Origin: Minisyncoccota bacterium
GTDB lineage: Bacteria > Patescibacteriota > Minisyncoccia > Phycocordibacterales > UBA2100
Direction of reading: 5' to 3'
Length of the DNA: 64,000 nt
Assembly (NCBI GenBank): GCA_031291875.1
Contig: JARLIE010000040.1
Coordinates: forward strand, 67,011-131,010
The notes beneath the pieces are model-generated. The model was not told the origin of the DNA, did not search any database, and saw only the letters and a list, made by a program, of their open reading frames with translations. Each line of letters starts with the position of its first letter. The stretch's first letter is position 1. The position numbers and the translations under genes are program-made. Of this stretch, positions 8,567 to 61,076 are shown piece after piece.

Positions 8567-8670
8567 GAGAAGGCTGTAAGTAGTTTCGCCGCCTAAGCAA
8601 GAAAGAAAGGGTAGTTTGACTTTTGCCTGTAATTAGGTAAGTTACTTACATAGTAAGCGTCTTACCTTCT

Positions 8671-10811: not shown

Positions 10812-12176
10812 ATGAGCCCGCTCATTCTCTCGCGAATACAATTCGGCGATACGGCCGCATTCCATATTCTCTGGCCGGTTATGTCGATCGGCATCGCGCT
10901 CTATATGGTTGTCATGGAGTCCATGTGGCTCTATACCAAAGAAGAATCGTACTACCGTCAGTTGCGTTTTTGGACAAAAATCTTTGTGCTCACGTTCGCC
11001 ATTGGCACCGCGAGCGGCCTGCCACTTTCGCTCGAATTCGGAACCAATTGGTCGCAGTTCGCGCAGGCGGCCGGTGATTTTATGGGTAATATTCTTGGGT
11101 TTGAAACTACGATCGCTTTCGCGCTTGAATCGGCATTTCTCGCGATACTTATATTCGGCTGGAAGCGGGTTCATCCGCTCATGCACCTTTTTTCGACCTT
11201 TATGGTCTTTATCGGTGCCTCGATCTCAGCCTTTTGGATCATGGTCGCCAACTCCTGGATGCAGGTGCCCGAGGGAATAACCGTTCAAAACGGACTCATC
11301 GTCGTTACGAACTACTCGCAGGCTATTTTTAATCCCGACTCCGTTGTTTCGTTTATGCACATGATGGGCGCGTGCGTCGAATCCTCGCTCTTCCTTATCG
11401 GCGGCATCGCGGCATGGCAACTACTAACAACTGAAGCGGGTCCGGTTCGAGATTTCTTTCGACAAACACTCGTGTATTGTCTTGCGATCGCGCTCTTTGT
11501 CGCGCCGCTGCAGGTAGTGATTGGTGACATGAGCGGACTCGTCGTCGCTCAGTATCAGCCGGAGAAGTTGGCGGCGCTTGAATTACAGTGGGACACGAAC
11601 GCTCCGGGTGAGGGAGCGGCATGGGATGTGGTCGCATGGCCGAATTCGACCAACAATGGTAACGCATTCGCCGTTTCGATCCCCAATGGATTGAGTCTCC
11701 TCACGACGCATTCGATGGAGGGGACGGTGCAAGGATTGAACGATTTTCAGGCAAGCGATCGACCAAGCGAAATGGAAGCCGTCATTACGTTTTATGGTTT
11801 TCGCTTGATGATGGTGATTGGTTTTTTGCTTGTCGCGCTCGCGCTCTGGAGCATCGTTTTGTGGTGGAAAGGGGGATTGTCGTCCGAGCGTATTGCACGT
11901 CATCGTGCTTGGCTTAGATGCTGGGTCGCGTCGATTCCGCTTGGTTTTATCGCGACGGAAGCTGGTTGGATGGTGCGCGAGATCGGTAGGCAACCCTGGA
12001 CCGTATATCACTTGATGCGTACCGCAGACAGCGTCTCAATCGGACTCACCAGTTACGAGGTAGGCACGACGACGCTCGTTGTTACCGCCGCTTACCTGGT
12101 ATTTGCTGGCGTATTCATCTATCTAAGTTATCGAATCGTTCGATCCGGTCCGGATCTCGTATCGCCGCTGCCATGA
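10812..12176 (+). CDS. cydA: cytochrome bd ubiquinol oxidase subunit I
   Basis: N-terminus LSRIQFGDTAAFHILWPVMSIGIALYM and Q-loop GWMVREIGRQPW match CydA. Confidence 0.85.
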   Translation: MSPLILSRIQFGDTAAFHILWPVMSIGIALYMVVMESMWLYTKEESYYRQLRFWTKIFVLTFAIGTASGLPLSLEFGTNWSQFAQAAGDFMGNILGFETTIAFALESAFLAILIFGWKRVHPLMHLFSTFMVFIGASISAFWIMVANSWMQVPEGITVQNGLIVVTNYSQAIFNPDSVVSFMHMMGACVESSLFLIGGIAAWQLLTTEAGPVRDFFRQTLVYCLAIALFVAPLQVVIGDMSGLVVAQYQPEKLAALELQWDTNAPGEGAAWDVVAWPNSTNNGNAFAVSIPNGLSLLTTHSMEGTVQGLNDFQASDRPSEMEAVITFYGFRLMMVIGFLLVALALWSIVLWWKGGLSSERIARHRAWLRCWVASIPLGFIATEAGWMVREIGRQPWTVYHLMRTADSVSIGLTSYEVGTTTLVVTAAYLVFAGVFIYLSYRIVRSGPDLVSPLP

Positions 12177-13165
12177 CCCCGACGCTACTCGCCCAAATTT
12201 GGTTCGCGATCATCTGCCTCGAAGCGGCCTTGTACGTGGTACTGGATGGCGGCAATCTAGGAATCGGCATGCTTTCGCTCGTGCCGCAGCCCGAACACGA
12301 GCGAGAAACGATCATGCGAGCGTTCGGGCCGATGTGGGATGCCAACGAGACATGGCTGCTTATCGCGGCCGCGACGACCTACGGCGCATTTCCTATGGTG
12401 TACAGCATCGCGCTCAATGCGCTCTATATTCCTGCATTCGTTTTCGGCGTCGGATTGGTACTGCGTGTTGCTTCGTACGAGTTTTATTGCAGCAGCGGAC
12501 AGCGGCTTTGGCGATTTCTCTTTGGGGTGGCGAGCCTCCTCGCTGTCGTGGGGCAGGGGTTTCTTCTGGGTGGTTTCATCAGCGGTATCTCGATTGCGAA
12601 CGGTCACTTTGCGGGTGGACCTTTAGACTGGGCGACGCCGGTTACCGCACTCTTTACGCTAGGCATCGTATTTGGCTACCTCGTGCTCGGTTATACGCGC
12701 CTTATCAACTTCGCGTCATACGAACTTTCGCCGAACGCGCTGCTCCAACTCTCGAGTGCGACCGTCATCGCCGCGTGCGCACTTATCGCCGGCGCGCTCC
12801 TTCTTCCGCATGCCAATTATCTGTATTTCGACCGCTGGACGGTACTACCAAGCGCATACATTCTCTATGTCATAGCCGCATGTATTGCGATTGTTTGCGC
12901 GGCGTTTGCGTACAACGTACTCACGAAGACCCACGTGCGAGAGTTGTATTACCTCAGTATGGCGATTTTCGCGCTCGGGTTTGTCGGCATGATCGTCGGT
13001 GTCTATCCGTATATTTTGCCGCCGAACGTCACTATCTTCGAGGCGGCCTCATCACCGGCAACGCAAGTGTTCATGCTTTGGGGGATCGGTCCGATTTTGC
13101 CGATAGTTCTCGTCTACAACTATTACATTCGCCGAATTTTCCGGCAGGACGGACCCGAATATTGA
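12173..13165 (+). CDS. cydB: cytochrome bd ubiquinol oxidase subunit II
   Basis: 330-aa polytopic protein. 4-nt overlap with cydA. N-terminus ...VVLDGGNLGIGML is typical of CydB. Confidence 0.8.
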   Translation: MTPTLLAQIWFAIICLEAALYVVLDGGNLGIGMLSLVPQPEHERETIMRAFGPMWDANETWLLIAAATTYGAFPMVYSIALNALYIPAFVFGVGLVLRVASYEFYCSSGQRLWRFLFGVASLLAVVGQGFLLGGFISGISIANGHFAGGPLDWATPVTALFTLGIVFGYLVLGYTRLINFASYELSPNALLQLSSATVIAACALIAGALLLPHANYLYFDRWTVLPSAYILYVIAACIAIVCAAFAYNVLTKTHVRELYYLSMAIFALGFVGMIVGVYPYILPPNVTIFEAASSPATQVFMLWGIGPILPIVLVYNYYIRRIFRQDGPEY

Positions 13166-13605: not shown

Positions 13606-13691
13606 ACAAGCACTATACGACTTTGATTGACCTAGTCAATACATGGGAACTTCACTTGTTGAATAGTAAAATATTTGATATACTCAAGTAT

Positions 13692-15140
13692 ATGGCTACT
13701 CACACCAAACAAGGGCGTTCGCCCTGGATCGTCTTTTTACTCGTAACCGTGGCTCAGTTCATGGTTGTTTTGGACATTTCAATCACGAATGTTGCGTTGC
13801 CAGTCATCAAATCTCAGCTCAATTTTACCGATAGCTCGCTGCAATGGGTGATCACGGCTTATGCGCTTGCCTTCGGCGGATTCCTCCTTCTAGGTGGTCG
13901 CGCAGCCGACCTTTACGGACGACGAACCGTCCTCCTGACCGGTCTCATCGCGTTCAGCTCGACCTCGTTCCTGATCGGCATGTCCTCGTCGGCAGCTGAG
14001 TTGATAGTTTTGCGAGCAATTCAAGGTCTTGCAGCCGCGTTTATGTCTCCCTCCGCACTCTCAATCGTGCTTACGACCTTCGGCGAAGGACCGGATCGCA
14101 ACCGCGCGCTCGCGTATTGGACTCTTGTCGCGACAGGGGGTGCAGCTGTCGGATTACTACTCGGCGGCTTTCTCACTGAATTCGTCAACTGGCGTTGGAA
14201 CTTTTTTATCAACGTTCCGATCGGTATCGTCGATGCAATCTTAATCTTGCGTATGGTTCCGAAACACGAAAAAGAAGAGCGCAATAAAAGTCTCGATTTG
14301 CCGGGAGCAACACTCGTCACTTCTAGCTTGATCGCGTTCGTCTTCGGATTCAGCCAGGGTCCGGCATGGGGATGGCTTTCGTTCCCGGTGCTCGGCGTCC
14401 TGGGGCTCGCCGTCTTGCTGCTCGTGGGATTCATCTACAACGAGTCTCGAAGCTCGCACCCGCTCATGCCGCTTTCGATCTTTAAGATTCGAAACGTAAG
14501 CGGCGCCAATCTCATGATGGCTCCGATTTACGCGGGTATGTTGGGAACCTTCTTCCTAACGACGCTCTACTTGCAAAACGTGCTCGGCTACTCACCGGCG
14601 ATCGCAGGCTTGAGTTACTTGCCGTTCCCGATCATCCTCGCAGTCATGTCCACCCGTATTCCGAAGCTCGTCGAGCGCTATGGCTTCAAGCGATTCCTCA
14701 TTATCGGTCCGTTACTTGCTGCGGCAGGAATGCTCTTGATGGGGTTCCTTCCGGTCCATGGCGACTATTTCCTCAACCTGCTTCCAACCTTCATTCTCGT
14801 ACCGCTTGGAATGGGAGTGACCTTCATGCCCGTCATCGCGGCAGCGACCTCTGGCGTGCCGGCACACGAAGCGGGGCTTGCCTCTGGTCTCATTACGACC
14901 TCTCAGCAAATGGGCGGCGCGCTCGGACTCTCGATTCTCTCTGGGGTTGCGACTTCGGTCGCGGCTGCGAGCACCGGTTTGGATCCGGCAACCGCGCTCG
15001 TACATGGATTCAATGCGGCATTCTTCACCGCTGCAGGATTTATGTTCTTCGCGATGCTGCTCGGTGCGCTGGTCATCAAACAACCAAAGGGCGCGCAAGG
15101 ACGCGTTTCGGCTCAGCAAATCGCCGAAGCGATGGTGTAA
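13692..15140 (+). CDS. MFS transporter, DHA2 family
   Basis: ATG at 13692 (MATHTKQGRSPWIVF...) preferred over 13623. 14 TM. Motif ADLYGRRTVLLTG. Confidence 0.75.
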   Translation: MATHTKQGRSPWIVFLLVTVAQFMVVLDISITNVALPVIKSQLNFTDSSLQWVITAYALAFGGFLLLGGRAADLYGRRTVLLTGLIAFSSTSFLIGMSSSAAELIVLRAIQGLAAAFMSPSALSIVLTTFGEGPDRNRALAYWTLVATGGAAVGLLLGGFLTEFVNWRWNFFINVPIGIVDAILILRMVPKHEKEERNKSLDLPGATLVTSSLIAFVFGFSQGPAWGWLSFPVLGVLGLAVLLLVGFIYNESRSSHPLMPLSIFKIRNVSGANLMMAPIYAGMLGTFFLTTLYLQNVLGYSPAIAGLSYLPFPIILAVMSTRIPKLVERYGFKRFLIIGPLLAAAGMLLMGFLPVHGDYFLNLLPTFILVPLGMGVTFMPVIAAATSGVPAHEAGLASGLITTSQQMGGALGLSILSGVATSVAAASTGLDPATALVHGFNAAFFTAAGFMFFAMLLGALVIKQPKGAQGRVSAQQIAEAMV

Positions 15141-15678: not shown

Positions 15679-16587
15679 ATGCGTCGCTCGACGATCGTTC
15701 TCTTGAGTATTTTTGTGCTCGCGCTTGCAGCAGCGACGTTCCTCTATGTCCGAAGTGCAACCATAGCCGTGCTCGATCCGGCTGGTCCCGTCGCCCTCGC
15801 CGAGAAAAACATCATCATTACGGCGACGTTTTTGTGTGCGCTGGTCGTTGTGCCGGTTTTCTTTTTGTTGTTTTTCTTTGCATGGAAGTATCGGGCCGAC
15901 AGTCCGCAGGCACAGCAATCCCACAAGCCGGATTGGGACCATGACAGCATTCTCGCGGAAGTGATTTGGTGGCTTGTTCCGGCCGTAATTATCGCTATCC
16001 TCGGCGTCATCGCGTGGAATAGTTCGCACGCGCTCGACCCGTATCGACCGCTCGAATCCGACGTTGCCACAATACCGATCGACGTCGTCGCGCTCGACTG
16101 GAAATGGCTCTTTATCTATCCGCAACAGGGAATCGCGAGCGTAAATCTTGTCGAATTTCCCGCAGGAACGCCGGTGCATTTCTATCTGACGGCAGACGCA
16201 CCGATGAACACGTTTTGGATACCGCAGCTTGCGGGGCAGGTTATGGTTATGCCCGGCATGACAACGCAGCTTAACCTGGCAGCGAGCAAAACGGGGGATT
16301 TCAACGGCTTCTCCGGAAACATCAGCGGAAAAGGATTTTCGGGCATGGCGTTTACCGCTCGTGCGGTAGATCAGCAAACGTTCAATACTTGGATCGCTTC
16401 AATAAAAGCTTCTTCGACACCGCTTACGCAAGAAGCCTACATAATGTTGGCGGCGCCAAGTGAATATAATCCGGTCGCGTATTACGACCTCGCGGAACCA
16501 AATCTCTTTGGTGCGATAGAATCCACCTATATGAATCCCGGATCGGCGATGCCGCAGGTGTCGCAAGGTATGACCGTGACACCATGA
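15679..16587 (+). CDS. cyoA: cytochrome o ubiquinol oxidase subunit II
   Basis: Two N-terminal TM helices plus a cupredoxin-like domain. FWIPQLAGQVMVMPGMTTQLNL...GFSG matches CyoA (quinol oxidase, no CuA ligands). Confidence 0.8.
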   Translation: MRRSTIVLLSIFVLALAAATFLYVRSATIAVLDPAGPVALAEKNIIITATFLCALVVVPVFFLLFFFAWKYRADSPQAQQSHKPDWDHDSILAEVIWWLVPAVIIAILGVIAWNSSHALDPYRPLESDVATIPIDVVALDWKWLFIYPQQGIASVNLVEFPAGTPVHFYLTADAPMNTFWIPQLAGQVMVMPGMTTQLNLAASKTGDFNGFSGNISGKGFSGMAFTARAVDQQTFNTWIASIKASSTPLTQEAYIMLAAPSEYNPVAYYDLAEPNLFGAIESTYMNPGSAMPQVSQGMTVTP

Positions 16588-18563
16588 ACTGGCAAACCTT
16601 GATCTTCGGGAATCTCTCGTGGTCGGTACTGCCCGAAAACGCGATCGCATGGTTCGGTGCGCTTACCGTTATCGCCGGTGTGCTCGCAGTGGTCGGCGTC
16701 GTTACGTATCTGGGCCGCTGGCAGTGGCTTTGGGACGAATGGTTCACATCGCTCGATCCGAAGAAAATCGGCGTTATGTACATCGTTGTCGCTCTCGTTA
16801 TGCTGGTGCGCGGCGGCTCCGACGCGCTCCTCATGCGCGCGCAACAGGCAACCTCGGTCGGCGATTCGTACGGCATTTTGACCTCGACGCACTTTCAAGA
16901 AATTTTCTCGGCGCATGGCTCGATCATGATCTTTTTCCTCGCGATGGGGTTTATGTTCGGACTTATCAACTTGATTGTCCCGCTGCAGATCGGATCGCGG
17001 GACGTCGCGTTCCCGTTTTTGAATTCGCTTAGCTTTTGGCTCTTCTTTGCCGGCGCGGCCCTGATCAACTGCTCACTCATTTTTGGCGATTTTTCTACGG
17101 CAGGTTGGCTCGCGTACCCGCCGCTTTCTGAATTGCGATATTCGCCGACTAGCGGCGTCGATTATTGGATCTGGTCGCTACAGATTGGCGGCCTAGGATC
17201 GCTGCTTTCGGGCGTGAACTTTTTTGCGACCATCGTGAAAATGCGTACGAAGGGGATGAACTGGATGCGTTTGCCGATGTTCAGCTGGACCGTGCTCGGC
17301 TCCATGACCCTCGTTATTTTCGCGTTCCCGATTCTCACCGTCACGCTCGCGCTGCTCTACCTCGATCGCACCGCCGGCATGCACTTTTTCACAGCAGAGC
17401 TCGGCGGCAATATGATGATGTACGTAAACTTGATCTGGGCGTGGGGACATCCGGAGGTGTATATTCTGATTCTTCCGGCCTTTGGCGTCTTTTCGGAAGT
17501 GGTGCCGGTTTTTTCGGGGAAGAAACTCGCCGGGTATACCTCGATGGTATTCTCTGTGTGGGCGATCGTGGTGCTCTCATTTATCGTATGGCTGCACCAC
17601 TTTTTCACGATGGGCGCGGGAGCGGACGTCAATGCGTTCTTCGGTATTATGACGGCCGTCATCGCCGTTCCCACCGGTGTCAAAATTTTCAACTGGCTTT
17701 TCACGATGTACCGCGGTCGCATTCGATTCGAGAGTCCGATGCTGTGGTTTATGGGATTCGTCGTGCTCTTTACGCTCGGCGGGGTCGCGGGTGTCGTGAT
17801 GGCGGAGCCACCGGCCGACTATCAGCTGCACAACTCTCTCTTTCTCGTCGCGCACTTCCACACGATGATCGTCTCCGGCGTGCTGTTCGGGTACTTTGCA
17901 GGGCTCACGTTCTGGTTTCCAAAAATATTCGGATTCAAAATGAACGAAAAGTGGGGGATTCGTGCGTTTTGGTTCTGGCTGATCGGCTTTATTCTCGCGT
18001 TCGGGCCGCTCTACTTGCTTGGCTTTGAGGGTGCGACCAGACGGCTCGACCATTATTCTTCTTCGCTCGGATGGCAGCCCCTTTTTATCGTCGCCGGCAT
18101 CGGTGCGATTTCTATAGCCATCGGTTTTTCATGCCAGGTGGCGCAGCTTGTCGCGACGTTTCGCGACTACAAGCGTAATCGCGTCGGCAACGATCCGTGG
18201 GACGGTCGCACGCTCGAGTGGTCGGTCGCTTCTCCAGCGCCCTCGTACAACTTCGCCGCCCTCCCGATTGTGCACTCGCGCGATGAGTTCTGGGAAGAAA
18301 AACACGGCGCGAGCACCCAGGAGCAAAAATTTGAGGATTTTTCTATGCCAAAAAATACCGGTGCCGCGGTTATTGTCAGTAGTTTTGTGTTCTTGCTGGG
18401 GTTTGGCGCCGTATGGCATATCTGGTGGCTCGTTATCGCCGCGCTGCTTGGTGCAACGATCGCGGTGCTCGTCCATGTTTTCAACGAAGACTCCGAATAC
18501 GCAGTGAGCGGCGCGCAGCTTGCACACCGCGAAGCGGGACTGCAGTATCCGACCAGCCTATGA
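16584..18563 (+). CDS. cyoB: cytochrome o ubiquinol oxidase subunit I (heme-copper oxidase)
   Basis: 659 aa. WAWGHPEVYILILPAFGVFSEVV, HHFFTMG and other heme-copper subunit I signatures. Confidence 0.9.
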   Translation: MNWQTLIFGNLSWSVLPENAIAWFGALTVIAGVLAVVGVVTYLGRWQWLWDEWFTSLDPKKIGVMYIVVALVMLVRGGSDALLMRAQQATSVGDSYGILTSTHFQEIFSAHGSIMIFFLAMGFMFGLINLIVPLQIGSRDVAFPFLNSLSFWLFFAGAALINCSLIFGDFSTAGWLAYPPLSELRYSPTSGVDYWIWSLQIGGLGSLLSGVNFFATIVKMRTKGMNWMRLPMFSWTVLGSMTLVIFAFPILTVTLALLYLDRTAGMHFFTAELGGNMMMYVNLIWAWGHPEVYILILPAFGVFSEVVPVFSGKKLAGYTSMVFSVWAIVVLSFIVWLHHFFTMGAGADVNAFFGIMTAVIAVPTGVKIFNWLFTMYRGRIRFESPMLWFMGFVVLFTLGGVAGVVMAEPPADYQLHNSLFLVAHFHTMIVSGVLFGYFAGLTFWFPKIFGFKMNEKWGIRAFWFWLIGFILAFGPLYLLGFEGATRRLDHYSSSLGWQPLFIVAGIGAISIAIGFSCQVAQLVATFRDYKRNRVGNDPWDGRTLEWSVASPAPSYNFAALPIVHSRDEFWEEKHGASTQEQKFEDFSMPKNTGAAVIVSSFVFLLGFGAVWHIWWLVIAALLGATIAVLVHVFNEDSEYAVSGAQLAHREAGLQYPTSL

Positions 18564-19165
18564 CCGACGAATTCGACCGCAGCGGCATACTTTCCGTCGA
18601 CGAAAAGTCCAAGGACTCGACGATCGTTTTCGGATTTTGGATGTACCTAATGACCGATCTCGTACTCTTCGCGAGCCTCTTTGTCGTTTTCGTCGTACTG
18701 CGTGGGCCCGAGTATGGCGGGGCATCGATCAAAAATACTTTCGATTTGCAGTATGTTTTTATCGAAACGATCGCGCTCTTGGTAAGCAGCTTCACGTGCG
18801 GACTCGCGCTTTTGTTCGCGCGCGAAGGGAATGTTCGGGGCACGGTATCATGGCTCTTAGCCACGTTCGTGCTTGGCGCCGCGTTCGTCGCGATGGAGGT
18901 TTCTGAATTTTCTCGTCTTCTTGCGCAAGGACTCGCACCCGCTCGCGACGGATTTCTCTCCGGTTATTTCACGCTCGTCGGAACGCACGGTGCGCACGTA
19001 ACCGTCGGGCTCCTCTGGCTCCTCGCGATGGTCGTGGCGATTGCCGGCAGGGGACTCTCCCGCGGGAATATGCGCAAGCTCGCGCTCTTTGCGATGTTTT
19101 GGCACTTCCTCGATGTGATCTGGATTTTTATCTTTACCATTGTGTACCTGATGGGCGTGCTATGA
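18560..19165 (+). CDS. cyoC: cytochrome o ubiquinol oxidase subunit III
   Basis: ATG at 18560 overlaps cyoB stop (ATGA). MTDEFDRSG...FGFWMYLMTDLVLFASLF and 5 TM are typical of CyoC. Confidence 0.8.
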   Translation: MTDEFDRSGILSVDEKSKDSTIVFGFWMYLMTDLVLFASLFVVFVVLRGPEYGGASIKNTFDLQYVFIETIALLVSSFTCGLALLFAREGNVRGTVSWLLATFVLGAAFVAMEVSEFSRLLAQGLAPARDGFLSGYFTLVGTHGAHVTVGLLWLLAMVVAIAGRGLSRGNMRKLALFAMFWHFLDVIWIFIFTIVYLMGVL

Positions 19166-19542
19166 AAAACTATTTCGAAGAAATCGGTGCTTGGCCTCGC
19201 TCACACAACATCGCCGGTTCGTACGCCGTCGGCTTCGCGCTCTCGCTCATGCTGACATTCGCGGCGTATGAGTTCGTCGTGCAAAACGCGCTGCCCCATG
19301 GGTGGCTCGTAGCAGTAGTCGTGGGTGCCGCAATTTTGCAGTTCATCGTGCAGGTATATTGTTTTCTCCACATAGGAACCGACTCGAGTACGCGCGAGCG
19401 ACTTTTCGCGCTTTCGTTTGCAGGACTCTTGATGCTGATTCTCGTCTCCGGATCACTCTGGATCATGTTCGATCTCAATGGTCGTATGAGGCCGGATAGC
19501 ACGCAGATGGTGCAATATATGAACGACCAAGGTGGTTTCTAA
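19162..19542 (+). CDS. cyoD: cytochrome o ubiquinol oxidase subunit IV
   Basis: 126 aa, 3 TM. ATGA overlap with cyoC. Position in operon. Confidence 0.65.
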   Translation: MKNYFEEIGAWPRSHNIAGSYAVGFALSLMLTFAAYEFVVQNALPHGWLVAVVVGAAILQFIVQVYCFLHIGTDSSTRERLFALSFAGLLMLILVSGSLWIMFDLNGRMRPDSTQMVQYMNDQGGF

Positions 19543-19545
19543 CCT

Positions 19546-20412
19546 ATGATCAAAGCCTACTATCGTCTCTCGAAGCCTGGCATCGTATACGGGAATTTGC
19601 TCACGACGATCGCCGCATTTTTGTACGCTTCGCGTTGGGGACTGGTTTCATGGGATGCGTGGATCGTGTTTCTTGCAACCGTCTTTGGACTCGGGCTTGT
19701 TATTGCCTCCGCCTGCGTGTTCAATAATTTTATCGATCGGGACATTGATCGAAAAATGAAACGCACGAAGAATCGCGCACTCGCAACCGGCGAGCTATCC
19801 AACGAGAACGCGCTTCTGTTTGCCACAATCATCGGTCTTATCGGCTTAACTCTCCTCATCGCCTTCGTGAACCTGCTGAGTGCGTTCATCGCGTTCGTCG
19901 GTTTCGCGGTCTATGTCTTCGCCTACACGCTTCTGAAACGCACCACGGCGTGGGCGACGGAAATTGGAAGTATCTCCGGAGCCGTTCCGATTCTTGTCGG
20001 TTACACGGCCGTGACGAATCGTTTCGATCTGGTCGCACTCATGCTCTTCGCGATCATGATTTTCTGGCAGATGCCGCATTTTTTTGCGATCGCACTCTTT
20101 CGTTTCGACGACTATGCTGCGGCGAATATTCCGACGCTGCCGCTCAAAAAAGGCGCACGTGTTACTAATATTCGCGCGCTCATCTATATCGTGCTCTTTG
20201 CAATTGGCGTGCTCGCGCTCACGGTACTTGGTTACGCCGGGTACTGGTATCTCGTGGTAGTGGAGATCGCGGCAGTCGTATGGTTTTGGCGAGGCACGCA
20301 AGGATTCGCTGCGGTGCATACTGAAGCCTGGGCCCGTAAATTTTTCTTCACCTCACTTGTCGTGCTTCTGGTTTTTGCAGCGATGCTTTCAATCGCGAAT
20401 CTCGTATTCTAG
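19546..20412 (+). CDS. cyoE: protoheme IX farnesyltransferase (heme O synthase)
   Basis: UbiA-family motifs NNFIDRDIDRKMKRTKNRALATGEL. 288 aa polytopic. Confidence 0.85.
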   Translation: MIKAYYRLSKPGIVYGNLLTTIAAFLYASRWGLVSWDAWIVFLATVFGLGLVIASACVFNNFIDRDIDRKMKRTKNRALATGELSNENALLFATIIGLIGLTLLIAFVNLLSAFIAFVGFAVYVFAYTLLKRTTAWATEIGSISGAVPILVGYTAVTNRFDLVALMLFAIMIFWQMPHFFAIALFRFDDYAAANIPTLPLKKGARVTNIRALIYIVLFAIGVLALTVLGYAGYWYLVVVEIAAVVWFWRGTQGFAAVHTEAWARKFFFTSLVVLLVFAAMLSIANLVF

Positions 20413-26188: not shown

Positions 26189-26521
26189 ATGCCAGAGAAG
26201 ATCTCCTACGATGATTTCGCGAAGCTCGACATTCGAATCGGGCGAGTGATTGCCGCCGAAATGGTTCCGGATGCCGATAAGCTCATCAAATGCACCGTCG
26301 ATTTCGGCGAGCTTGGACAACGCACCATCGTTTCGGGCATCGCGCTCTGGAAAAAGCCTGAAGAATTGGTCGGCAAACAACTCCCGTACATCGTCAATCT
26401 CGAGCCTCGCATGCTGCGCGGTGTCGAAAGTGCGGGCATGCTGATCGCTGCTTCCGATGAGCAAGGCGTCGCACTCCTCCAACCGGAGCGTGAGATTCCC
26501 CCAGGTACCAAACTCAAGTAA
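26189..26521 (+). CDS. tRNA-binding protein (CsaA/Trbp111-type OB fold, MetRS C-terminal-like)
   Basis: 110 aa. KLDIRIGRVIAAEMVPDADKLIKCTVDFGE...IVSGIA matches the EMAP/Trbp111 domain. Confidence 0.75.
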   Translation: MPEKISYDDFAKLDIRIGRVIAAEMVPDADKLIKCTVDFGELGQRTIVSGIALWKKPEELVGKQLPYIVNLEPRMLRGVESAGMLIAASDEQGVALLQPEREIPPGTKLK

Positions 26522-47783: not shown

Positions 47784-47793
47784 AGTCACCATG

Positions 47794-47828
47794 AGGCCGG
47801 CGCCGTTTCGCGCCGGCCTTATTTTTTT
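47794..47828 (+). terminator. rho-independent terminator
   Basis: AGGCCGGCGC-cgtttc-GCGCCGGCCT followed by TATTTTTTTGC. Confidence 0.7.
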
Positions 47829-51277: not shown

Positions 51278-51709
51278 ATGCTCCGTATTTCCCACATCAA
51301 AACCGTTACCGATTCGCAGTGGGAAAATATCGTTTCACTCGAACAAGAGCTCCATGAGTCGAGCAAACAGTATCCGCGTGAAAACTTAAACGCGATGCTC
51401 GCGAACGATCAGGTTTTTGTGTTGGCCGTGCAAGATGGCGAGCGCATCATCGGCATGGCAACGTTGTACCTTCAACAGAAAATCGATAATCGCGCCGCGT
51501 GGGTCGAAGACGTGATTGTGAGTGACGAGTATCGCGGTCGCGGTCTGGGGAAGCAGCTTATGGAAGAGCTCATAAAAACAGCGAGGGAAGAGGGTGTTCT
51601 GACGCTGAACCTGACATCACGATCATCGCGCGTCGCTGCGAACGCGTTGTATCAAAAATTAGGGTTCGAACAACGAGATACGAACGTCTATAAAATGAAG
51701 TTGTTGTAG
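51278..51709 (+). CDS. GNAT-family N-acetyltransferase
   Basis: Acetyl-CoA binding motif RGRGLGKQLMEELIKTAREEG. Confidence 0.75.
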   Translation: MLRISHIKTVTDSQWENIVSLEQELHESSKQYPRENLNAMLANDQVFVLAVQDGERIIGMATLYLQQKIDNRAAWVEDVIVSDEYRGRGLGKQLMEELIKTAREEGVLTLNLTSRSSRVAANALYQKLGFEQRDTNVYKMKLL

Positions 51710-51710
51710 T

Positions 51711-52862
51711 ATGGCTCGCGTAAAGATAAGCGAATATCGAGCCAAAAAGATTTTACTTGGCGATTCGTACAAGGGTATTTTGGTTCGCACTGAAGAAAAG
51801 CAAAAGATGCCCAAGGGCGGGACCTGGGTGGCCAAAGTCGACCAGGGCGTCAAAAAGCGCTTTAAACAAGGACTTGTTGCCGTCGGTGTAACGCCGGCGC
51901 AGGCGGCGAAGAAGTTTGCGCTCTGGCAAAAGGAAGGCTTCTCGCAGTTCCTGCTCGAACCGCTCGTCCCGCACAAATCGGAAGAAGAACAGTACCTTTC
52001 GCTCGACCGTGTTCGCGAGGGGATTCGCGTGCTGCATGCAGGCGAGGGCGGAATCGACATCGAAACACATCCGGAGAAAGTCGGCACGTATACCATTGCG
52101 AACGATGAAGATCTCGCAATAGTTTCGAGTGCGACAAATATCCCGCAAACGTTTTTACGACACGTTCTGGAAGTATTCGATAAAAACTTTTTCGCCTTTC
52201 TTGAAATCAATCCGCTGGTCATCCAAGGCGGTAAGGCGCACTTGCTCGATGCCGCGTGCCTCGTTGACAGTGCTGGAGAATTTTTCGTTACGTCATGGGG
52301 GCAAGACGATATCGTGAAGTCGAGAGCCGCGCATGAGTCGGAAGCTCGCGTTGAAGAATTACAAAACACGACGCCGGCCTCACTCAAGCTCTCCGTCATC
52401 AACCCGAACGGTTCGCTGTTTTTCCTGCTCTCGGGTGGCGGCGGCTCGATCGTCATTGCCGACGAAGCGGAGCTTGAAGGCGCAGGGAAGCTCATCGGCA
52501 ATTACGGCGAATACAGCGGCGGTCCGACGCGGCAAGAGACCTATTTATATGCAAAAGAAGTGATTGCGCTCATGCTCAAGTCGAACGCGAAGAAGAAGGC
52601 ACTGGTGATCGCAGGGGGCGTGGCGAACTTTACCGACGTTCAAAAAACATTCGCCGGCATCATCGACGCGCTTTCTGAGTTTGCGCCCAAGCTACGCGAA
52701 CAAAAGGTGAAAGTATTCGTCCGTCGAGGAGGTCCGAATGAGAAAGCGGGACTCGAACTCATGTGTGCATTTTTGGACCGCGAAAAGCTGTTCGGCTCGA
52801 TTCACGGATCAGATGATGTGATTACAAGTGCGGTTGCCGATGCTATCAAATTTGCTGTATGA
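51711..52862 (+). CDS. aclB: ATP-citrate lyase, ATP-grasp (beta) subunit
   Basis: Collinear with the N-terminus of eukaryotic ACLY/AclB: ISEYRAKKIL, FLLEPLVPH, FLEINPLV, ASLKLSVINPNGSLFFLLSGGGGSIV, GNYGEYSGGPTRQETYLYAK, VFVRRGGPN. Confidence 0.85.
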   Translation: MARVKISEYRAKKILLGDSYKGILVRTEEKQKMPKGGTWVAKVDQGVKKRFKQGLVAVGVTPAQAAKKFALWQKEGFSQFLLEPLVPHKSEEEQYLSLDRVREGIRVLHAGEGGIDIETHPEKVGTYTIANDEDLAIVSSATNIPQTFLRHVLEVFDKNFFAFLEINPLVIQGGKAHLLDAACLVDSAGEFFVTSWGQDDIVKSRAAHESEARVEELQNTTPASLKLSVINPNGSLFFLLSGGGGSIVIADEAELEGAGKLIGNYGEYSGGPTRQETYLYAKEVIALMLKSNAKKKALVIAGGVANFTDVQKTFAGIIDALSEFAPKLREQKVKVFVRRGGPNEKAGLELMCAFLDREKLFGSIHGSDDVITSAVADAIKFAV

Positions 52863-54643
52863 ACTTTATCGACGCAACACGAAAGGGGAAAGAGGGCATT
52901 CTTGTTTTGGGGAACCATCCGCAGATCGTGCAGTCGATCCTCGATTTTGATTTCGTGTGCGGCAAGCGCGAACCGTCGGTCGTGGCAGTGATCGGAGGAG
53001 CAAGGCGAGCGCAGAAATTTTTTTTCGGCCCATCCGAACTATTGATCCCGTGTTTCGCCGACGTTTCGAAAGTTCCTCAAGGCCTGCGCGGCAAGATCTT
53101 CTGGATGCTGAACGTGCAGTCTGGACGACGTTCATTCGACTCGACGGTTTCATTTTTTGAAACGTTCCCTCATGCGCTCGGTGGACATCTCTTCGCCGAA
53201 AACATTCCCGAGCGGCATTCCACCGAACTCATTAGGCGTTTTGGCGCTACAAAGCTGCTCGCCGGCCCCTCCGGCGTCGGCTTTCTTGTGCCCGGCTATC
53301 TGAAATTGGGGGCGATCGGTGGAACGGACGCAGCGATGTTAGAAGCATCCAAGCTGGCGACTGAGGGAACGATTGCGGTTGTTTCCACCTCCGGCGGCAT
53401 GACCAACGAGCTTATACGCGCGGTCGCGAACGCGGGGAAGCGGCTTTCGTTCGCTATTTCGATTGGTGGAGATCGTTTCCCGGTAACCTCGCTTTCCGAG
53501 GTGCTCCTGCTCGCGCAAAGCGATTCCAAAACGAAAGCCATCGTGTATTTTGGCGAACTCGGCGGCGTCGATGAATACGAGATCGTGGAGCTGATCGAAA
53601 AGAAAAAGCTCACGAAGCCGGTGTTGGCGTATGTTGCTGGGATCATCGACGAGGCATTCGACGAACATATGCAGTTTGGACACGCCAAAGCGCTCGTCGC
53701 CCGGCCGAGCGAAAGCGCGCGCGCAAAACGCGACGCCCTGCGCAAGGCGGGAGCGCTCGCCCCAGAAACCTTTCCGGAATTCCTCGCACGCATGAAAAAA
53801 CTCCCAGGCACGACCGTTCGGGACATGGCGCTTCCCATGGACGCGCTGCAAAAACGCCGTGCGAGCGTCCTCTCCACGCGTCAGGTCGTCGATCTCGACG
53901 AAACTCCGATATTCGTCAAAGCCAAAAAACTCGTTTCGCAAAAAGAAGGATTCGCGACGAAGATTTTTGAGTCACTACTTGATCGAAAGCTCCGCTCTCC
54001 AAGTACTGCTGGCTTTGCCGAGGCGGTATTCGGTCTTTTGATAGACCATGGCGGGGAAGTCTCGGGCGCGGTCAATACTATGATTTCGGCGCGCGCGGGC
54101 AGAGACCTTGTTTCATCGCTCGCGAGCGGTCTTCTGACGATCGGGCCCCGTTTTGGCGGCGCAGTGAACGCTGCTGCGGGGCAATGGCTCGATGGCGTCT
54201 GTGGCGCCGAATCTGCTGCCGAGTTCGTCGAAAAAAGAACGAAGGGCGGGAATCTTCTCGCCGGCATCGGGCACCGCAAATACAGGGTCGGCATTCCCGA
54301 CCCGCGTGTCGCGGCACTCGCGGATTTTGCGACGCTCTTGAAGCAACACCCTTATTACGATTTTGCCCGTGAGGTAGAGAAAGTGACAACGGCAAAGAAC
54401 GGCTCCCTTATTTTGAATGTCGACGGCGTCATGGCGGCGCTCGCGCTCGATATCTTTGCGCAGTGCGAGCAACTCTCTCAAGATGAATTGCGTGAACTCG
54501 TAACGACGGAGTTCTTCAATGCACTTTTCGTGATTCCGCGAACCGTCGGATTTATTGCGCATTTTATGGAGCAAAAGAAGAACGACGAAGGATTGTTCCG
54601 CTTGCCGGAGGAATTGCTTTTCGTGCGAAGGAAAAAGAAGTAG
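52859..54643 (+). CDS. aclA: ATP-citrate lyase, CoA-binding/citrate-synthase-like (alpha) subunit
   Basis: LDFDFVCGKREPSVVAV, phosphohistidine loop QFGHAKA, IDHGGEVSGAVNTMISARAGRDLVSSLASGLLTIGPRFGGA, GIGHRKYRVGIPDPRV, C-terminal GFIAHFMEQKK...LFRLPEE. All collinear with ACLY/AclA. Confidence 0.85.
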   Translation: MNFIDATRKGKEGILVLGNHPQIVQSILDFDFVCGKREPSVVAVIGGARRAQKFFFGPSELLIPCFADVSKVPQGLRGKIFWMLNVQSGRRSFDSTVSFFETFPHALGGHLFAENIPERHSTELIRRFGATKLLAGPSGVGFLVPGYLKLGAIGGTDAAMLEASKLATEGTIAVVSTSGGMTNELIRAVANAGKRLSFAISIGGDRFPVTSLSEVLLLAQSDSKTKAIVYFGELGGVDEYEIVELIEKKKLTKPVLAYVAGIIDEAFDEHMQFGHAKALVARPSESARAKRDALRKAGALAPETFPEFLARMKKLPGTTVRDMALPMDALQKRRASVLSTRQVVDLDETPIFVKAKKLVSQKEGFATKIFESLLDRKLRSPSTAGFAEAVFGLLIDHGGEVSGAVNTMISARAGRDLVSSLASGLLTIGPRFGGAVNAAAGQWLDGVCGAESAAEFVEKRTKGGNLLAGIGHRKYRVGIPDPRVAALADFATLLKQHPYYDFAREVEKVTTAKNGSLILNVDGVMAALALDIFAQCEQLSQDELRELVTTEFFNALFVIPRTVGFIAHFMEQKKNDEGLFRLPEELLFVRRKKK

Positions 54644-54698
54644 GGAAGGTGAGGTAGTACCGTACCGCCTCGCTGGGCCTCGCGGTATACTAGGGGAC

Positions 54699-56729
54699 AT
54701 GGGCCCAGGAGAGAATCCGGAAGACAGCCAAAAGATCGATCGCTTGCGACAAGCGATGTATTCGCGACGACTTTCCGAGCAGCTGACAGCTCGCGATCGC
54801 AGGAATTTGGAACCTTCTCAACACGTAGTCGGCGACGATTTTGTGCATTCAAGCGATCCACTTCCGCAATCAATGGTCGCGCCGAGGGGAATCGGCATCG
54901 CACGCAAAGCGCTGTGGTGGGTGCTCGCAATTGCGATTCTTTTCTTTATCGCGGCACTCGGCTTCTTTGGCTACTACTTCATCTTCGGCGGAGGGACGCT
55001 CGCGTCTTCTCCTCAAAATATCGATATTGCGGTCTCGGGACCGCCCGAAGTGCAAAGCGGCGGCATTACCGAGCTGCAAGTCATCGTGACGAATCGCAAC
55101 AATGTTCCGCTCAGCCTTTCAACGCTGATCGTCAATTTCCCGCAAGGCACACGTTCGGCGGCCAACCTCTCGCAAGATGAACCAACGCTCACGCAAGATC
55201 TCGGTACGATTGCACCCGGCGCAAGTGTTCAAGGCGAAATTCCGGCAGTCTTTTCCGGGGTCGCGGGCCAGCAGTCCGACGTGAAATTCCAATTGCAGTA
55301 CCACTTGCCGGGCTCCAACGGCGTCTTCATCGCCTCGAGCGACTACGCCATTAAGTTTGGAACATCACCGCTTTCGATCTCGGTCGATGGTAATTCGCAA
55401 ACAGTTTCGGGCCAGCCGATTCAATTCACAGTGAACGTCGCCTCAAACGCCACTCAGCCGATCCAAGGCGCGCTGCTTTCGATCTCGTATCCATTCGGCT
55501 TTTCGCTGACCTCTGCGACGCCGCCCTCGAGCGCGCCGGGTGTTTGGAACCTCGGTACGTTAAGTCCGGGGCAATCGAAATCGGTAACCGTCCAAGGGAC
55601 ACTGACCGGTTCTCCAGGCGATACGCGCACGTTTAATATCGTGACCGGTACGGGATCAACCTCCGCGGCAACCAACCTATCGACTACGCTTTCGAGCGAA
55701 AGTTATGCGATGAACATCACCAGCTCCTTCCTCGGCCTTTCAATCTCGGTCAATGGTGCTTCTTCGACAACCACCGTCGCGCCGGGCGACAGTGTCTCTG
55801 TTTCGATCAACTACACCAACAACCTGCCGACCGCGATACAAAACGCCATCATTGTCGCGAAGCTCTCCGGCGTGCAGATCGACGGCTCGACCGTACGCTC
55901 GTCCAATGGTTTCTATCGATCAAGCGATGCCTCGATGTATTGGGATCAATCGACGACCAACGGACTTTTGACCTCCATTCCGGCGGGTGGCTCTGGAACG
56001 CTTAAGTTCACCTTCACGGCGCCGACCTCGGCGATGCTCACGAACACCACGAACCCGCATCTGGTGATCTCGCTGAGTGCCGCCGGACAGCGCACCGATC
56101 AGACAGGCGCTGTAAAGAACTTGCAGGGAACAGCGCAACAGACGATTGGGATTACGAGCGGACTCGAACTTGCCGCGCAAGGTCTCTACTACGCCGATCC
56201 GTTCGGTTCGACCGGCCCCATGCCGCCGAAGGCCGGCTCGGAGACCACCTATGCGATCGTGTTTACGGTAACGAATACGACGGATCAGATCAAGAACGCG
56301 AAACTCACCGCATACCTCCCGCCGTATGTTCGGTGGCTTGGCACTTATTCTCCGGCGAGCGAAAATATCTCCGTTGATCCGGTGAGCGGAGAAGTCACCT
56401 GGAATCTCGGCACGATCGCCCCAAATTCGGGGGTCAATGGAAACCAGCCGCGCCAGGCGGCGATAGCGATCGGCTTCACCCCTTCGACGTCCCAAATCGG
56501 CTCCCAACCGGCGCTCTTGCAGCACATCGCCCTTTCGGGCCTTGATACGGGCGCAACGACGCCGGTGTCGGCCGGCAATCCCTTCGCCGCGACCAGCTCC
56601 TCGGCGGTCAATCTGAGTGTAAGCGACGTTACAACCAATCTTTCGCAGGTCTCCGAGTCTTCGAGCGGCATGAATATCGGCACTGATCCGGGTTTCACAC
56701 CTACGAGTGCTACGGTTGTCTCCCAATAG
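54699..56729 (+). CDS. large single-pass surface protein with repeated beta-rich (DUF11/CARDB-like) domains
   Basis: ATG at 54699 after AGGGGAC. Cytoplasmic N-tail, one TM (ALWWVLAIAILFFIAALGFFGYYFIF), ~600-aa extracellular region with repeated ~100-aa modules. Confidence 0.55.
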   Translation: MGPGENPEDSQKIDRLRQAMYSRRLSEQLTARDRRNLEPSQHVVGDDFVHSSDPLPQSMVAPRGIGIARKALWWVLAIAILFFIAALGFFGYYFIFGGGTLASSPQNIDIAVSGPPEVQSGGITELQVIVTNRNNVPLSLSTLIVNFPQGTRSAANLSQDEPTLTQDLGTIAPGASVQGEIPAVFSGVAGQQSDVKFQLQYHLPGSNGVFIASSDYAIKFGTSPLSISVDGNSQTVSGQPIQFTVNVASNATQPIQGALLSISYPFGFSLTSATPPSSAPGVWNLGTLSPGQSKSVTVQGTLTGSPGDTRTFNIVTGTGSTSAATNLSTTLSSESYAMNITSSFLGLSISVNGASSTTTVAPGDSVSVSINYTNNLPTAIQNAIIVAKLSGVQIDGSTVRSSNGFYRSSDASMYWDQSTTNGLLTSIPAGGSGTLKFTFTAPTSAMLTNTTNPHLVISLSAAGQRTDQTGAVKNLQGTAQQTIGITSGLELAAQGLYYADPFGSTGPMPPKAGSETTYAIVFTVTNTTDQIKNAKLTAYLPPYVRWLGTYSPASENISVDPVSGEVTWNLGTIAPNSGVNGNQPRQAAIAIGFTPSTSQIGSQPALLQHIALSGLDTGATTPVSAGNPFAATSSSAVNLSVSDVTTNLSQVSESSSGMNIGTDPGFTPTSATVVSQ

Positions 56730-59645: not shown

Positions 59646-61076
59646 ATGAGAACTTTTTACCTGACGACCACACTTCCGTATGTGAACGCCGATCCGCATA
59701 TCGGATTCGCACTTGAAATCGTGCAGGCCGATATCATCGCGCGCTATCGAAAGCTGCGGGGCGATGACGTCTTCTTCAACACCGGCACCGACGAGCACGG
59801 CCAAAAGCTCTTTGAGGCTGCTAAAAAAGCAGGGAAGACTCCGCAGGAGTACGTCGACGAGTACGCGGCAAAGTTCCGAACGCTGAAGGAGTCACTGAAC
59901 CTTTCGCCCGATCTCCATTTCATCCGAACCACCGATCCGCATCATATCGAAGCCGCGCAAGAAATTTGGCGCCGCTGCGCCGCTGCCGGCGATATCGAGA
60001 AACGAAGTTACAAAGGCCTCTACTGCGTCGGCGACGAGGCGTTCATCAAGGAGTCGGATCTTGTGAACGGCCGCTGCCCCAACCACCCCAATATGGATCC
60101 GGTTATGCTCGAAGAGGAAAATTATTTCTTTTTGCTCAGTAAGTACCAAAAGCCGCTGCTCGAATACCTTTCTCGGGAGGATGTTATTTTGCCGCAGTGG
60201 CGCAGGCAGGAGGCCATCAAGTTTGTCGAGCAAGGACTCGAAGATTTTTCGATTTCTCGCGTCAAAGAAAAGATGCCGTGGGGAATTCCTGTTCCAAACG
60301 ATGAATCGCAAGTCATGTACGTGTGGTTCGACGCGCTTACCAACTATATTTCCACACTCGGTTGGCCCGAAGACGCCGAGGGTAATTTCAAAAAATTCTG
60401 GCAGGAGGGCGAGGTCATGCAGGTGGCGGGGAAGGACCAGGTGCGATTTCAGTCAATTATGTGGCAGGCGATGCTTATGTCGGCCGGAATCAAGACTACC
60501 GATAAGGTTCTTTATCACGGTTTTATAACGAGCGGTGGGCAGAAAATGTCGAAATCACTCGGGAACGTCATCGACCCGATGAATCTCGTGCAGGAATACG
60601 GGGCCGATGCGCTGCGCTATTTTCTCGCCAGACACATTTCGGCCTTCGAGGATTCTGACTTCACGTTGGATCGTTTTGCCGAGGCGTACAACGCGGATAT
60701 GGCCAACGGCTTGGGCAATCTCGTTTCGCGGGTCATGACGCTGGCGCAGAGGAATCTCGATGGTCCTGTTGAGCTACCGGAGCTCGATTTCCCGCAGGAT
60801 TATCGCGAAGCGCTCGATCATTTTGAATTCAGTCGCGCGATGGAACTTGTCGCCGAACGCATTCATGCTGCCGATCAAAAGATCAACGCGACCGAACCCT
60901 TCAAGCTCGTGAAGACCGACCCTGAGAAGGGAAATGCGATTATTCGCGATCTCGTTATCGAGCTCGCCGTGATTCTCTACATGTTGTGGCCGATTATACC
61001 GGAGAAAGGGCATGTCATTTGGGAGGCGATCAAGACGAATACAAAGCCCGAAAACCTCTTTCCGCGCAAAGAATAA
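59646..61076 (+). CDS. metG: methionyl-tRNA synthetase, minimal form lacking the C-terminal tRNA-binding domain
   Basis: YLTTTLPYVNADPHIGFALE (the HIGH motif reads HIGF) and QKMSKSLGNVIDP (KMSKS). 476 aa. Confidence 0.85.
   Translation: MRTFYLTTTLPYVNADPHIGFALEIVQADIIARYRKLRGDDVFFNTGTDEHGQKLFEAAKKAGKTPQEYVDEYAAKFRTLKESLNLSPDLHFIRTTDPHHIEAAQEIWRRCAAAGDIEKRSYKGLYCVGDEAFIKESDLVNGRCPNHPNMDPVMLEEENYFFLLSKYQKPLLEYLSREDVILPQWRRQEAIKFVEQGLEDFSISRVKEKMPWGIPVPNDESQVMYVWFDALTNYISTLGWPEDAEGNFKKFWQEGEVMQVAGKDQVRFQSIMWQAMLMSAGIKTTDKVLYHGFITSGGQKMSKSLGNVIDPMNLVQEYGADALRYFLARHISAFEDSDFTLDRFAEAYNADMANGLGNLVSRVMTLAQRNLDGPVELPELDFPQDYREALDHFEFSRAMELVAERIHAADQKINATEPFKLVKTDPEKGNAIIRDLVIELAVILYMLWPIIPEKGHVIWEAIKTNTKPENLFPRKE

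Follow-up and report, generated by a model that had tools for sequence, protein, structure and literature searches.

ATP-citrate lyase (ACL) has already been described in bacteria of the candidate phyla radiation (CPR). Sieber et al. (2019, mBio; PMC6851277) found a two-subunit ACL in the closed genome of a Gracilibacterium, a 2025 groundwater study listed aclAB among the genes enriched in metagenome-assembled genomes (MAGs) of Saccharimonadia (PMC12577380), and a 2022 preprint pointed to citrate-cleavage enzymes of CPR and DPANN organisms that are mis-annotated as succinyl-CoA synthetase (SCS) or citrate synthase. Here, we analyze the aclB-aclA gene pair found in a stretch of 64,000 nucleotides from a Minisyncoccota bacterium (GenBank assembly GCA_031291875.1, contig JARLIE010000040.1, positions 67,011 to 131,010 of the forward strand), which we call the window. 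The presence of ACL in the CPR is therefore known, and the present enzyme adds another lineage. A preliminary description of this DNA, made from the sequence alone, had proposed a two-subunit ACL in an organism with a reduced genome, and this proposal is borne out by domains, solved structures, catalytic residues, and phylogeny. Its further remark that a bacterium of this kind would be an unexpected place for the enzyme to act was overstated, given Gracilibacterium (PMC6851277), the Saccharimonadia (PMC12577380), and the dozens of species of the clade described below.

The closest described systems resemble the pair in the window to different degrees. The Gracilibacterium enzyme, which can be compared by description only, is also encoded by two genes in a reduced CPR genome, was judged to be closest to archaeal proteins, and was read as cleaving external citrate to acetyl-CoA and oxaloacetate. 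However, it belongs to another CPR class, its identification relied on a GHAGA phosphohistidine motif that is GHAKA in the present clade, and it was reported together with putative citrate transporters, while we recognized none in the window; the paper contains no report of linkage to a GNAT-family acetyltransferase (PMC6851277). The ACLs of Methanosaeta concilii (ACLY-A/B) and human (ACLY) (PDB 6hxi, 6hxh, 6uuz) share with the present enzyme their domain order, collinearity over the full length, the major branch of the phylogenetic tree, and every tested catalytic and ligand-binding residue, although the identity is only about 34 to 36% and the phosphohistidine loop differs by a Gly-to-Lys replacement. 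Furthermore, human ACLY is one fused chain with a regulatory linker, and its N-terminal part is about 40 residues longer than AclB of the window. The AclBA of Chlorobium limicola (PDB 6hxj), which is of the type found in the reductive tricarboxylic acid (rTCA) cycle, has the same heteromeric aclB-aclA organization and the same chemistry, but it is only about 28% identical, forms a distinct branch together with Nitrospinota (100% bootstrap support), and works in an autotrophic cycle. Finally, the citryl-CoA synthetase (CCS) and citryl-CoA lyase (CCL) of Hydrogenobacter (PDB 6hxq, 6hxp), as well as SCS, are built from homologous ATP-grasp, CoA-ligase, and lyase modules, but in Hydrogenobacter the lyase is a separate protein, and CCS/CCL and SCS match the pair at only 1e-10 to 1e-21.

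Both genes lie on the forward strand, where the preliminary description had placed them. The first, aclB (51711–52862, +; 383 amino acids, ATG start), encodes the beta subunit with its ATP-grasp and citrate-binding domains, and the second, aclA (52859–54643, +; 594 amino acids, ATG start), encodes the alpha subunit, in which a CoA-binding domain is followed by a CoA-ligase (phosphohistidine) domain and by a C-terminal citryl-CoA-lyase domain homologous to citrate synthase. The TGA stop codon of aclB and the ATG start codon of aclA share the tetranucleotide ATGA (52859–52862, +; sequence GCTGTATGAACTTT), an overlap that suggests translational coupling and that was found again in 30 of 38 scored relatives, while the order aclB then aclA is kept in every relative locus with upstream sequence. 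All the motifs quoted in the preliminary description are present. In AclB these are ASLKLSVINPNG (amino acids 223–234), GNYGEYSGGP (263–272), and VFVRRGGPN (335–343), and in AclA they are LDFDFVCGKREPSV (28–41), FGHA (273–276), DHGGEVSGAVNTMISARAGRDLVSSLASGLLTIGPRFGGA (396–435), and GIGHR (469–473). The GC content of the two genes, overall and at third codon positions (GC3), is in line with that of the adjoining housekeeping genes.

The assignment to ACL depends on several lines of evidence. AclB contains the Pfam domains Citrate_synth_N, which corresponds to the ATP-grasp domain of ACL (93.7 bits, 1.5e-26; cutoff 83), and Citrate_bind, the ACL-specific citrate-binding domain (170.5 bits, 3.4e-50; cutoff 26.8), while AclA carries Ligase_CoA (residues 175–299), Succ_CoA_lig, and the C-terminal Citrate_synt domain (363–581) on one chain. 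In a search against solved structures, AclB residues 39–353 were collinear with human ACLY 55–393 (E 8e-56) and AclA residues 15–584 with human ACLY 500–1088 (E 2.4e-98), in agreement with the collinearity proposed previously, so that the eukaryotic linker is the sole part of the human enzyme without a counterpart. The ACLY of M. concilii was matched at 3.9e-92 by AclA (ACLY-B) and 3e-49 by AclB, and the ACL of Chlorobium at 2.6e-58 and 1.4e-31, respectively. Matches to related enzymes were 35 to 80 orders of magnitude weaker than those to solved ACLYs: about 1e-21 for SCS alpha against AclA, 2.5e-16 and 4e-10 for CCS against AclA and AclB (large subunit), and 1.7e-13 for CCL against AclA.

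It could be argued that the pair is instead an SCS, an ADP-forming acyl-CoA synthetase, a CCS/CCL, or a citrate/2-methylcitrate synthase. In fact, NCBI gives the last of these names to a record 100% identical to AclA, which belongs to a MAG labelled "Candidatus Pacebacteria bacterium" (related alpha subunits are also called "hypothetical protein"), and some of the domains are common to SCS and citrate synthase; JGI, for its part, names AclA homologues ATP citrate (pro-S)-lyase. Nevertheless, a profile comparison, which the preliminary description had suggested as a check together with a phylogeny, placed the ACL domains above their cutoffs and the models of the other families below. The matches of the NCBIfam models to the pair are partial and three- to ten-fold under the curated cutoffs, with SucD at 99 bits against 336, SucC at 40 against 376, CCL at 68 against 212, and the citrate synthase models at no more than 52 against at least 330. 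The citrate-synthase Pfam profile is matched only by the C-terminal part of AclA and only over its positions 147–355 of 357, while the ACL-specific Citrate_bind domain is present in AclB; moreover, the CCL-like module is fused to an SCS-alpha-like module in the manner of AclA and not of CCS/CCL, and solved ACLs reach 1e-98 where SCS, CCS, and CCL reach 1e-21 or weaker. The phylogeny also leaves the pair outside SCS and the ADP-forming acyl-CoA synthetases, and the catalytic His and Asp residues are in place. Thus, we regard a misidentification as hardly credible, and because domains, matches to solved structures, catalytic residues, and phylogeny agree, we conclude that AclB and AclA are, as far as sequences can tell, an intact heteromeric ACL (EC 2.3.3.8) of the archaeal/eukaryotic type.

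The residues of the active site are well preserved. An alignment of AclA with human ACLY and 50 other sequences showed that the equivalents of human E599, H760, H900, H975, R976, D1026, R1065, and R1085 are kept, the last six corresponding to His397, His472, Arg473, Asp522, Arg561, and Arg581 of AclA (54044–54601, +); the same alignment marks a further aclA codon at 53198–53200 (+). The equivalent of R976 is L or K in some members of the clade but is retained in the AclA of the window. A structure alignment indicated that AclB keeps G309, N346-F347-T348, and R379 of human ACLY, residues that form the citrate site in the 3MWD structure, as well as the LEINPL and LLDAA segments of the ATP-grasp domain. 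Roles in the ACLY reaction have been described for H760, E599, F347, H900, R976, D1026, and R1065 (PMC10115795). On the strength of these conserved residues, the enzyme is predicted to be catalytically competent.

There is one departure from this conservation. In the phosphohistidine loop QFGHAKA (53672–53692, +), the catalytic His275 (human H760) is present, but the motif around it is a variant, GHAKA for GHAGA, in which Lys277 replaces a Gly (human G762). FGHAKA is found in 120 of 120 retrieved homologues and 44 of 44 loci, as well as in most sister CPR lineages, while Chlorobium, Nitrospinota, DPANN, Saccharibacteria-type, and human sequences have GHAGA. As far as our literature searches reach, this signature appears not to have been described before.

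To see how widely the enzyme is shared, we scanned one genome per GTDB species and read about 20 kb per locus. The bacterium of the window is itself a member of the Patescibacteria of the Paceibacterota type. The scan yielded loci from at least 47 species, all of them Patescibacteria MAGs, including contigs of 0.5 to 0.75 Mb; of the 47 loci studied, 44 contain aclA, 40 have flanks readable enough to be informative about the neighboring acetyltransferase discussed below, and 38 were scored for the aclB-aclA overlap. These genomes and more than 120 protein clusters carry the enzyme at 60 to 80% identity; the best 120 clusters are 65 to 80% identical to AclA and include proteins named from Paceibacterota, Parcubacteria, Kaiserbacteria, Liptonbacteria, and Minisyncoccia. 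When 1.84 billion cluster representatives were searched exhaustively without a profile, 132 matches fell below 1e-30, among which the whole Paceibacterota AclA clade forms one cluster at 50% identity, followed first by two-subunit proteins with 43 to 48% identity and then by fused proteins of eukaryotic length with 33 to 38%. The median identity of AclA (66%) is close to the 62 to 68% of IleRS, ArgRS, and MetRS in syntenic loci (same-locus medians of 65% for IleRS and 68% for MetRS). Since AclA has diverged about as much as these aminoacyl-tRNA synthetases, the data fit long vertical inheritance under constraint, and we conclude that dozens of species in this lineage have inherited ACL vertically as a stable trait.

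A neighbor-joining tree of AclA (584 columns, 100 bootstraps), a simple method whose deeper nodes are weakly supported, places the protein of the window in a clade with 100% bootstrap support, nested in a CPR group (93%) that includes a Dojkabacteria protein. The same major branch holds a DPANN protein (Norongarragalinales), a Saccharibacteria-type cluster, a M. concilii-like protein, and human ACLY, while the ACLs of Chlorobiaceae and Nitrospinota form the separate branch mentioned above; the relatives outside the clade are given here by their taxon labels (Dojkabacteria, Norongarragalinales, Saccharibacteria, Chlorobiaceae, and Nitrospinota). Regarding such labels, many related MAGs of one large catalogue are called "uncultured Candidatus Saccharibacteria", while they show synteny and 60 to 70% identity with Kaiserbacteria and Paceibacterota genomes, and their labels are probably unreliable. 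We also observed that in the most divergent member of the clade (locus L035), aclB is divided into two open reading frames (ORFs; positions 8591–9996 of that locus), the second of which opens with a segment unrelated to AclB (GYSYWTFSDIFEENYF); this split could reflect a frameshift, an insertion, or an error of assembly.

The most consistent feature of the surroundings of aclBA is an acetyltransferase gene, which, like the GHAKA variant and two terminal oxidases described below, was absent from the preliminary description. In the window, a GNAT-family N-acetyltransferase (51278–51709, +; 143 amino acids; Pfam Acetyltransf_1, 5.7e-22) ends 1 nucleotide before the start of aclB and contains the acetyl-CoA-binding motif RGRGLG (amino acids 86–91; 51533–51550, +), in accordance with the motif A pattern R/Q-x-x-G-x-G/A. 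Its acceptor was sought with NCBIfam models and solved structures, which returned generic matches only (RimI, polyamine, and glucosamine-6-phosphate acetyltransferases, about 1e-8); the closest NCBIfam model, RimI (TIGR01575), scored 64.8 bits, under its equivalog cutoff of 86.4. The position upstream of aclB is occupied in other genomes by a second family of about 200 amino acids (f8), which hhalign aligns with the GNAT family over the acetyl-CoA-binding motif (probability 91%, E 9e-7) and several members of which pass Pfam gathering scores; f8 is itself a divergent GNAT.

We then surveyed the six frames of the 44 aclA loci with hidden Markov models (HMMs) of the two families. Of the 40 informative loci, 39 have at least one of them next to aclBA and in the same orientation, upstream in 38 and directly downstream in one, the exception being L035, and the HMM search found no copy of either family away from aclBA across the roughly 880 kb sampled. 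On the AclA tree the two types are interspersed, two loci carry both, and the linkage is kept in at least four unrelated neighborhoods, namely IleRS-RecO, MltG-Prs, UvrB, and one formed by two further recurrent families (f40/f70). The six loci of more distant ACL lineages (L049–L054) gave no match to either HMM. For the sister CPR lineage represented by P0124/L048, there is instead an Acyl_transf_3 membrane O-acyltransferase of 366 amino acids directly upstream of aclB (positions 1629–2729 of that locus), a protein that differs in fold from the GNAT but has acetyl-CoA dependence in common with it. To the extent that our literature searches can tell, the GNAT-aclBA cassette also appears to be undescribed; in fact, a full-text search found nothing on an ACL of the Paceibacterota/Kaiserbacteria clade, on linkage to a GNAT, or on GHAKA.

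What could such a cassette be for? With moderate confidence, we favor the cleavage of scavenged citrate as a supply of acetyl-CoA for acetylation. Citrate would be taken from the surroundings or the host, and following the established enzymology of ACLY, AclB would bind ATP through its ATP-grasp domain as well as citrate; His275 of AclA would be phosphorylated and would pass its phosphate on, yielding citryl phosphate, the attack of CoA would then give citryl-CoA, and this would be split into acetyl-CoA and oxaloacetate. The acetyl-CoA would be spent on acetylation, first of all by the GNAT encoded immediately upstream in a tightly packed co-directional array, with oxaloacetate as a by-product that could be put to other uses. 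In this scheme, we infer which way the flux runs, where the citrate comes from, what the GNAT acetylates, and what becomes of the oxaloacetate. The cleaving direction seems the most likely because no gene of the TCA or rTCA cycle is nearby in the sampled DNA, which comprises the 64-kb window, part of a contig no shorter than 220 kb, and relatives' flanks totalling about 880 kb, and the use in acetylation is suggested because aclBA is linked to an acetyl-CoA-using GNAT. The preliminary description had put forward cleavage of scavenged citrate as one of two possible directions; this remains plausible and gains a conserved acetyl-CoA-using neighbor, while the direction itself is still a matter of interpretation.

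Several observations weigh against this proposal. The ACLs of CPR bacteria appear to be known from genomes rather than from biochemistry, the ACL reaction is reversible and its direction cannot be read from a sequence, and a TCA cycle, a pyruvate:ferredoxin oxidoreductase or pyruvate dehydrogenase, or other sources of acetyl-CoA may lie outside the 64-kb window and the flanks of about 20 kb. There is no recognizable citrate carrier of the CitMHS, 2-HCT, or DASS families in the window, and the Gly-to-Lys replacement (G762K) stands two residues from the catalytic His. In addition, the linkage to the GNAT is not shared by the more remote lineages that we sampled, among them CPR and Saccharibacteria-type ones, and the cassette has no clear promoter or terminator of its own inside a long array, in genomes that are densely co-directional.

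The same enzyme could work in the opposite direction, as a citrate synthase that conserves ATP, in which acetyl-CoA, oxaloacetate, ADP, and Pi give citrate, ATP, and CoA, either within an oxidative or reversed-oxidative cycle or as a stand-alone step of substrate-level phosphorylation. An ATP-yielding ACL was reportedly described by Moller, Schauder, Fuchs, and Thauer in 1987 in the acetate oxidation of Desulfobacter. ACLY can run its retro-aldol and ligase steps both ways, citryl-CoA does form on the enzyme from acetyl-CoA and oxaloacetate (PMC10115795), the cydAB and cyoABCDE quinol oxidases of the window imply some respiratory metabolism, and we saw no citrate-synthase-like or SCS-like paralogue in the window or in the loci of relatives, so that no separate citrate synthase is in evidence. 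Nevertheless, the genes annotated in the window and the recurrent neighbors in relatives include no aconitase, isocitrate dehydrogenase, 2-oxoglutarate dehydrogenase or 2-oxoglutarate:ferredoxin oxidoreductase, SCS, succinate dehydrogenase or fumarate reductase, fumarase, or malate dehydrogenase, the conserved partner consumes acetyl-CoA instead of producing it, and CPR bacteria are generally reported to be without a TCA cycle (PMC12577380). We therefore consider operation in reverse to be improbable. A role in autotrophic CO2 fixation is much harder still to defend. ACL is the usual marker enzyme of the rTCA cycle and is used as such in annotation pipelines (PMC12930757), but no 2-oxoglutarate:ferredoxin oxidoreductase, pyruvate:ferredoxin oxidoreductase, fumarate reductase, or other enzyme of the TCA or rTCA cycle was found among the annotated genes of the window or the recurrent genes in the flanks of the 47 relatives, the protein is on the archaeal/eukaryotic-type branch and not on the Chlorobium/Nitrospinota rTCA branch, and genomes in this lineage are small, with near-complete contigs of relatives of 0.5 to 0.75 Mb.

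Other alternatives concern the GNAT. Its adjacency could be without functional meaning, a housekeeping acetyltransferase such as RimI simply travelling with aclBA in compact genomes, and it is true that RimI is the best NCBIfam model (though under cutoff), that CPR genomes are densely packed, and that the cassette of the window sits inside a long housekeeping array without private signals. However, neither chance nor hitch-hiking would be expected to maintain a linkage that outlives at least four different wider neighborhoods, in which two types of GNAT fill the same slot with no other copies in the sampled loci, and we find this explanation unlikely. Alternatively, and compatibly with the cleavage of citrate for acetylation, the GNAT might regulate ACL instead of or besides consuming acetyl-CoA, by acetylating AclA or AclB on a lysine, perhaps Lys277, as a product feedback similar to that of Pat or AcuA on acetyl-CoA synthetase. 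In Bacillus subtilis, the GNAT gene acuA lies next to acsA, which encodes an acyl-CoA-forming enzyme that the GNAT acetylates, and human ACLY is also subject to lysine acetylation. This idea would agree with the near-obligate adjacency of the GNAT and aclBA and with a clade-invariant Lys placed two residues past the catalytic His, at a position that is Gly in other ACLs and in SCS. Nonetheless, Lys277 does not vary with the GNAT: it is invariant in the clade, including the sole informative locus without a GNAT (L035), and GHAKA is also found in the GNAT-less loci of sister CPR lineages (P0123/L050, P0129/L052, and P0124/L048), and therefore the two are not co-distributed. Moreover, we saw no deacetylase nearby, and the similarity to Pat or AcuA is limited to the generic GNAT fold. 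Regulation of ACL by the GNAT is thus doubtful, and it would be more speculative still to combine both roles in a self-contained "citrate-to-acetyl-group" module, in which the GNAT would use ACL-made acetyl-CoA and feed back by acetylating Lys277. If that were true, this feedback would be a new mode of control for an enzyme of the ACL/SCS superfamily, and the module would be the main way for these lipid- and TCA-deficient cells to acquire and meter host-derived acetyl units.

Returning to citrate cleavage for acetylation, this proposal offers a testable idea for acetyl-CoA supply in the CPR, in which scavenged citrate would feed a genetically linked acetyltransferase. Whichever direction the enzyme takes, an ultra-small Patescibacteria clade carries ACL without signs of a cycle in the sampled DNA, which calls for caution in metagenome pipelines that take ACL as a key marker of the rTCA cycle (PMC12930757), and the alpha subunits that NCBI names "citrate/2-methylcitrate synthase" or "hypothetical protein" should be corrected to ACL. 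The Gly-to-Lys replacement next to the catalytic His, invariant here, alters a motif that is otherwise kept from SCS to human ACLY, and as a naturally occurring variant it could inform the enzymology of phosphoryl transfer. Although the enzyme itself will be no surprise to specialists in the CPR, the GHAKA signature and the conserved GNAT-aclBA cassette are of modest interest and open to direct testing.

In the window, the cassette is part of the co-directional array ileS-recO-GNAT-aclB-aclA-DUF11-glyS. A scan for promoters and terminators around the ACL genes gave counts at background level, and the sole convincing transcription signal within 10 kb around them is a hairpin resembling an intrinsic terminator just upstream of ileS (47791–47822, +), whose 13-bp stem contains 9 G-C pairs and is followed by a T7 tail. 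Downstream of aclA is a surface protein with DUF11 domains (54555–56729), which accompanies aclBA in 18 loci; as called, its ORF overlaps aclA by 89 nucleotides, and the ATG at 54699 is a likelier start, which would leave a spacer of 55 nucleotides. Among the recurrent neighbors of aclBA in the 47 relatives, which were assigned by reading representative sequences (f8 alone was checked against Pfam), there were no metabolic partner genes; they look like housekeeping genes, such as those for UvrABC, Prs, MltG, Ddl, LexA, DinB, IF-3, and aminoacyl-tRNA synthetases. The transporters of the window are two MFS proteins, the specificity of which was not assigned, one EamA, and one AI-2E.

The window also encodes two terminal oxidases, which is uncommon for one Patescibacteria genome. 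The first is a cytochrome bd quinol oxidase, with CydA at 10812–12176 (Pfam 1.5e-142) and a hydrophobic ORF of 330 amino acids at 12173–13165, CydB-like by its appearance, which overlaps the cydA stop by 4 nucleotides; they are flanked by MFS genes at 9105–10757 and 13623–15140, with a MarR regulator at 8671–9108. The second is a bo3-type heme-copper quinol oxidase operon (15679–20412), which comprises CyoA with a COX_ARM motif (15679–16587), CyoB (16584–18563; 1e-144), a CyoC-like ORF in the 18413–19165 frame, CyoD (19099–19542), and a UbiA-family prenyltransferase (19546–20412) in the position of the heme O synthase CyoE. Cytochrome o oxidase genes have been mentioned in only "a few" Parcubacteria MAGs (PMC12577380), and the combination of both types of oxidase indicates a richer metabolism in this lineage than the usual fermentative picture of the CPR would suggest. 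Thus, where the preliminary description had suggested a reduced and partly host-dependent lifestyle, the reduced genome is confirmed, but the organism is less simply minimal than was supposed.

The remaining context on which that suggestion was based holds in part. The surface genes of the window include those for PilM and for proteins with TIG and DUF11 domains, and the absence of rplA can be affirmed at the rplK locus only, where rplK (L11; 41445–41867) is followed by an ORF of 182 amino acids without a Pfam family (ending at 42493) and not by rplA (L1). MetRS is indeed of a short form (59646–61076; 476 amino acids), and a separate ORF of 110 amino acids (26189–26521; MPEKISYDDFAKLDIRIGRV) resembles, on visual inspection, a stand-alone tRNA-binding domain of the MetRS C-terminal or Trbp111-like kind.

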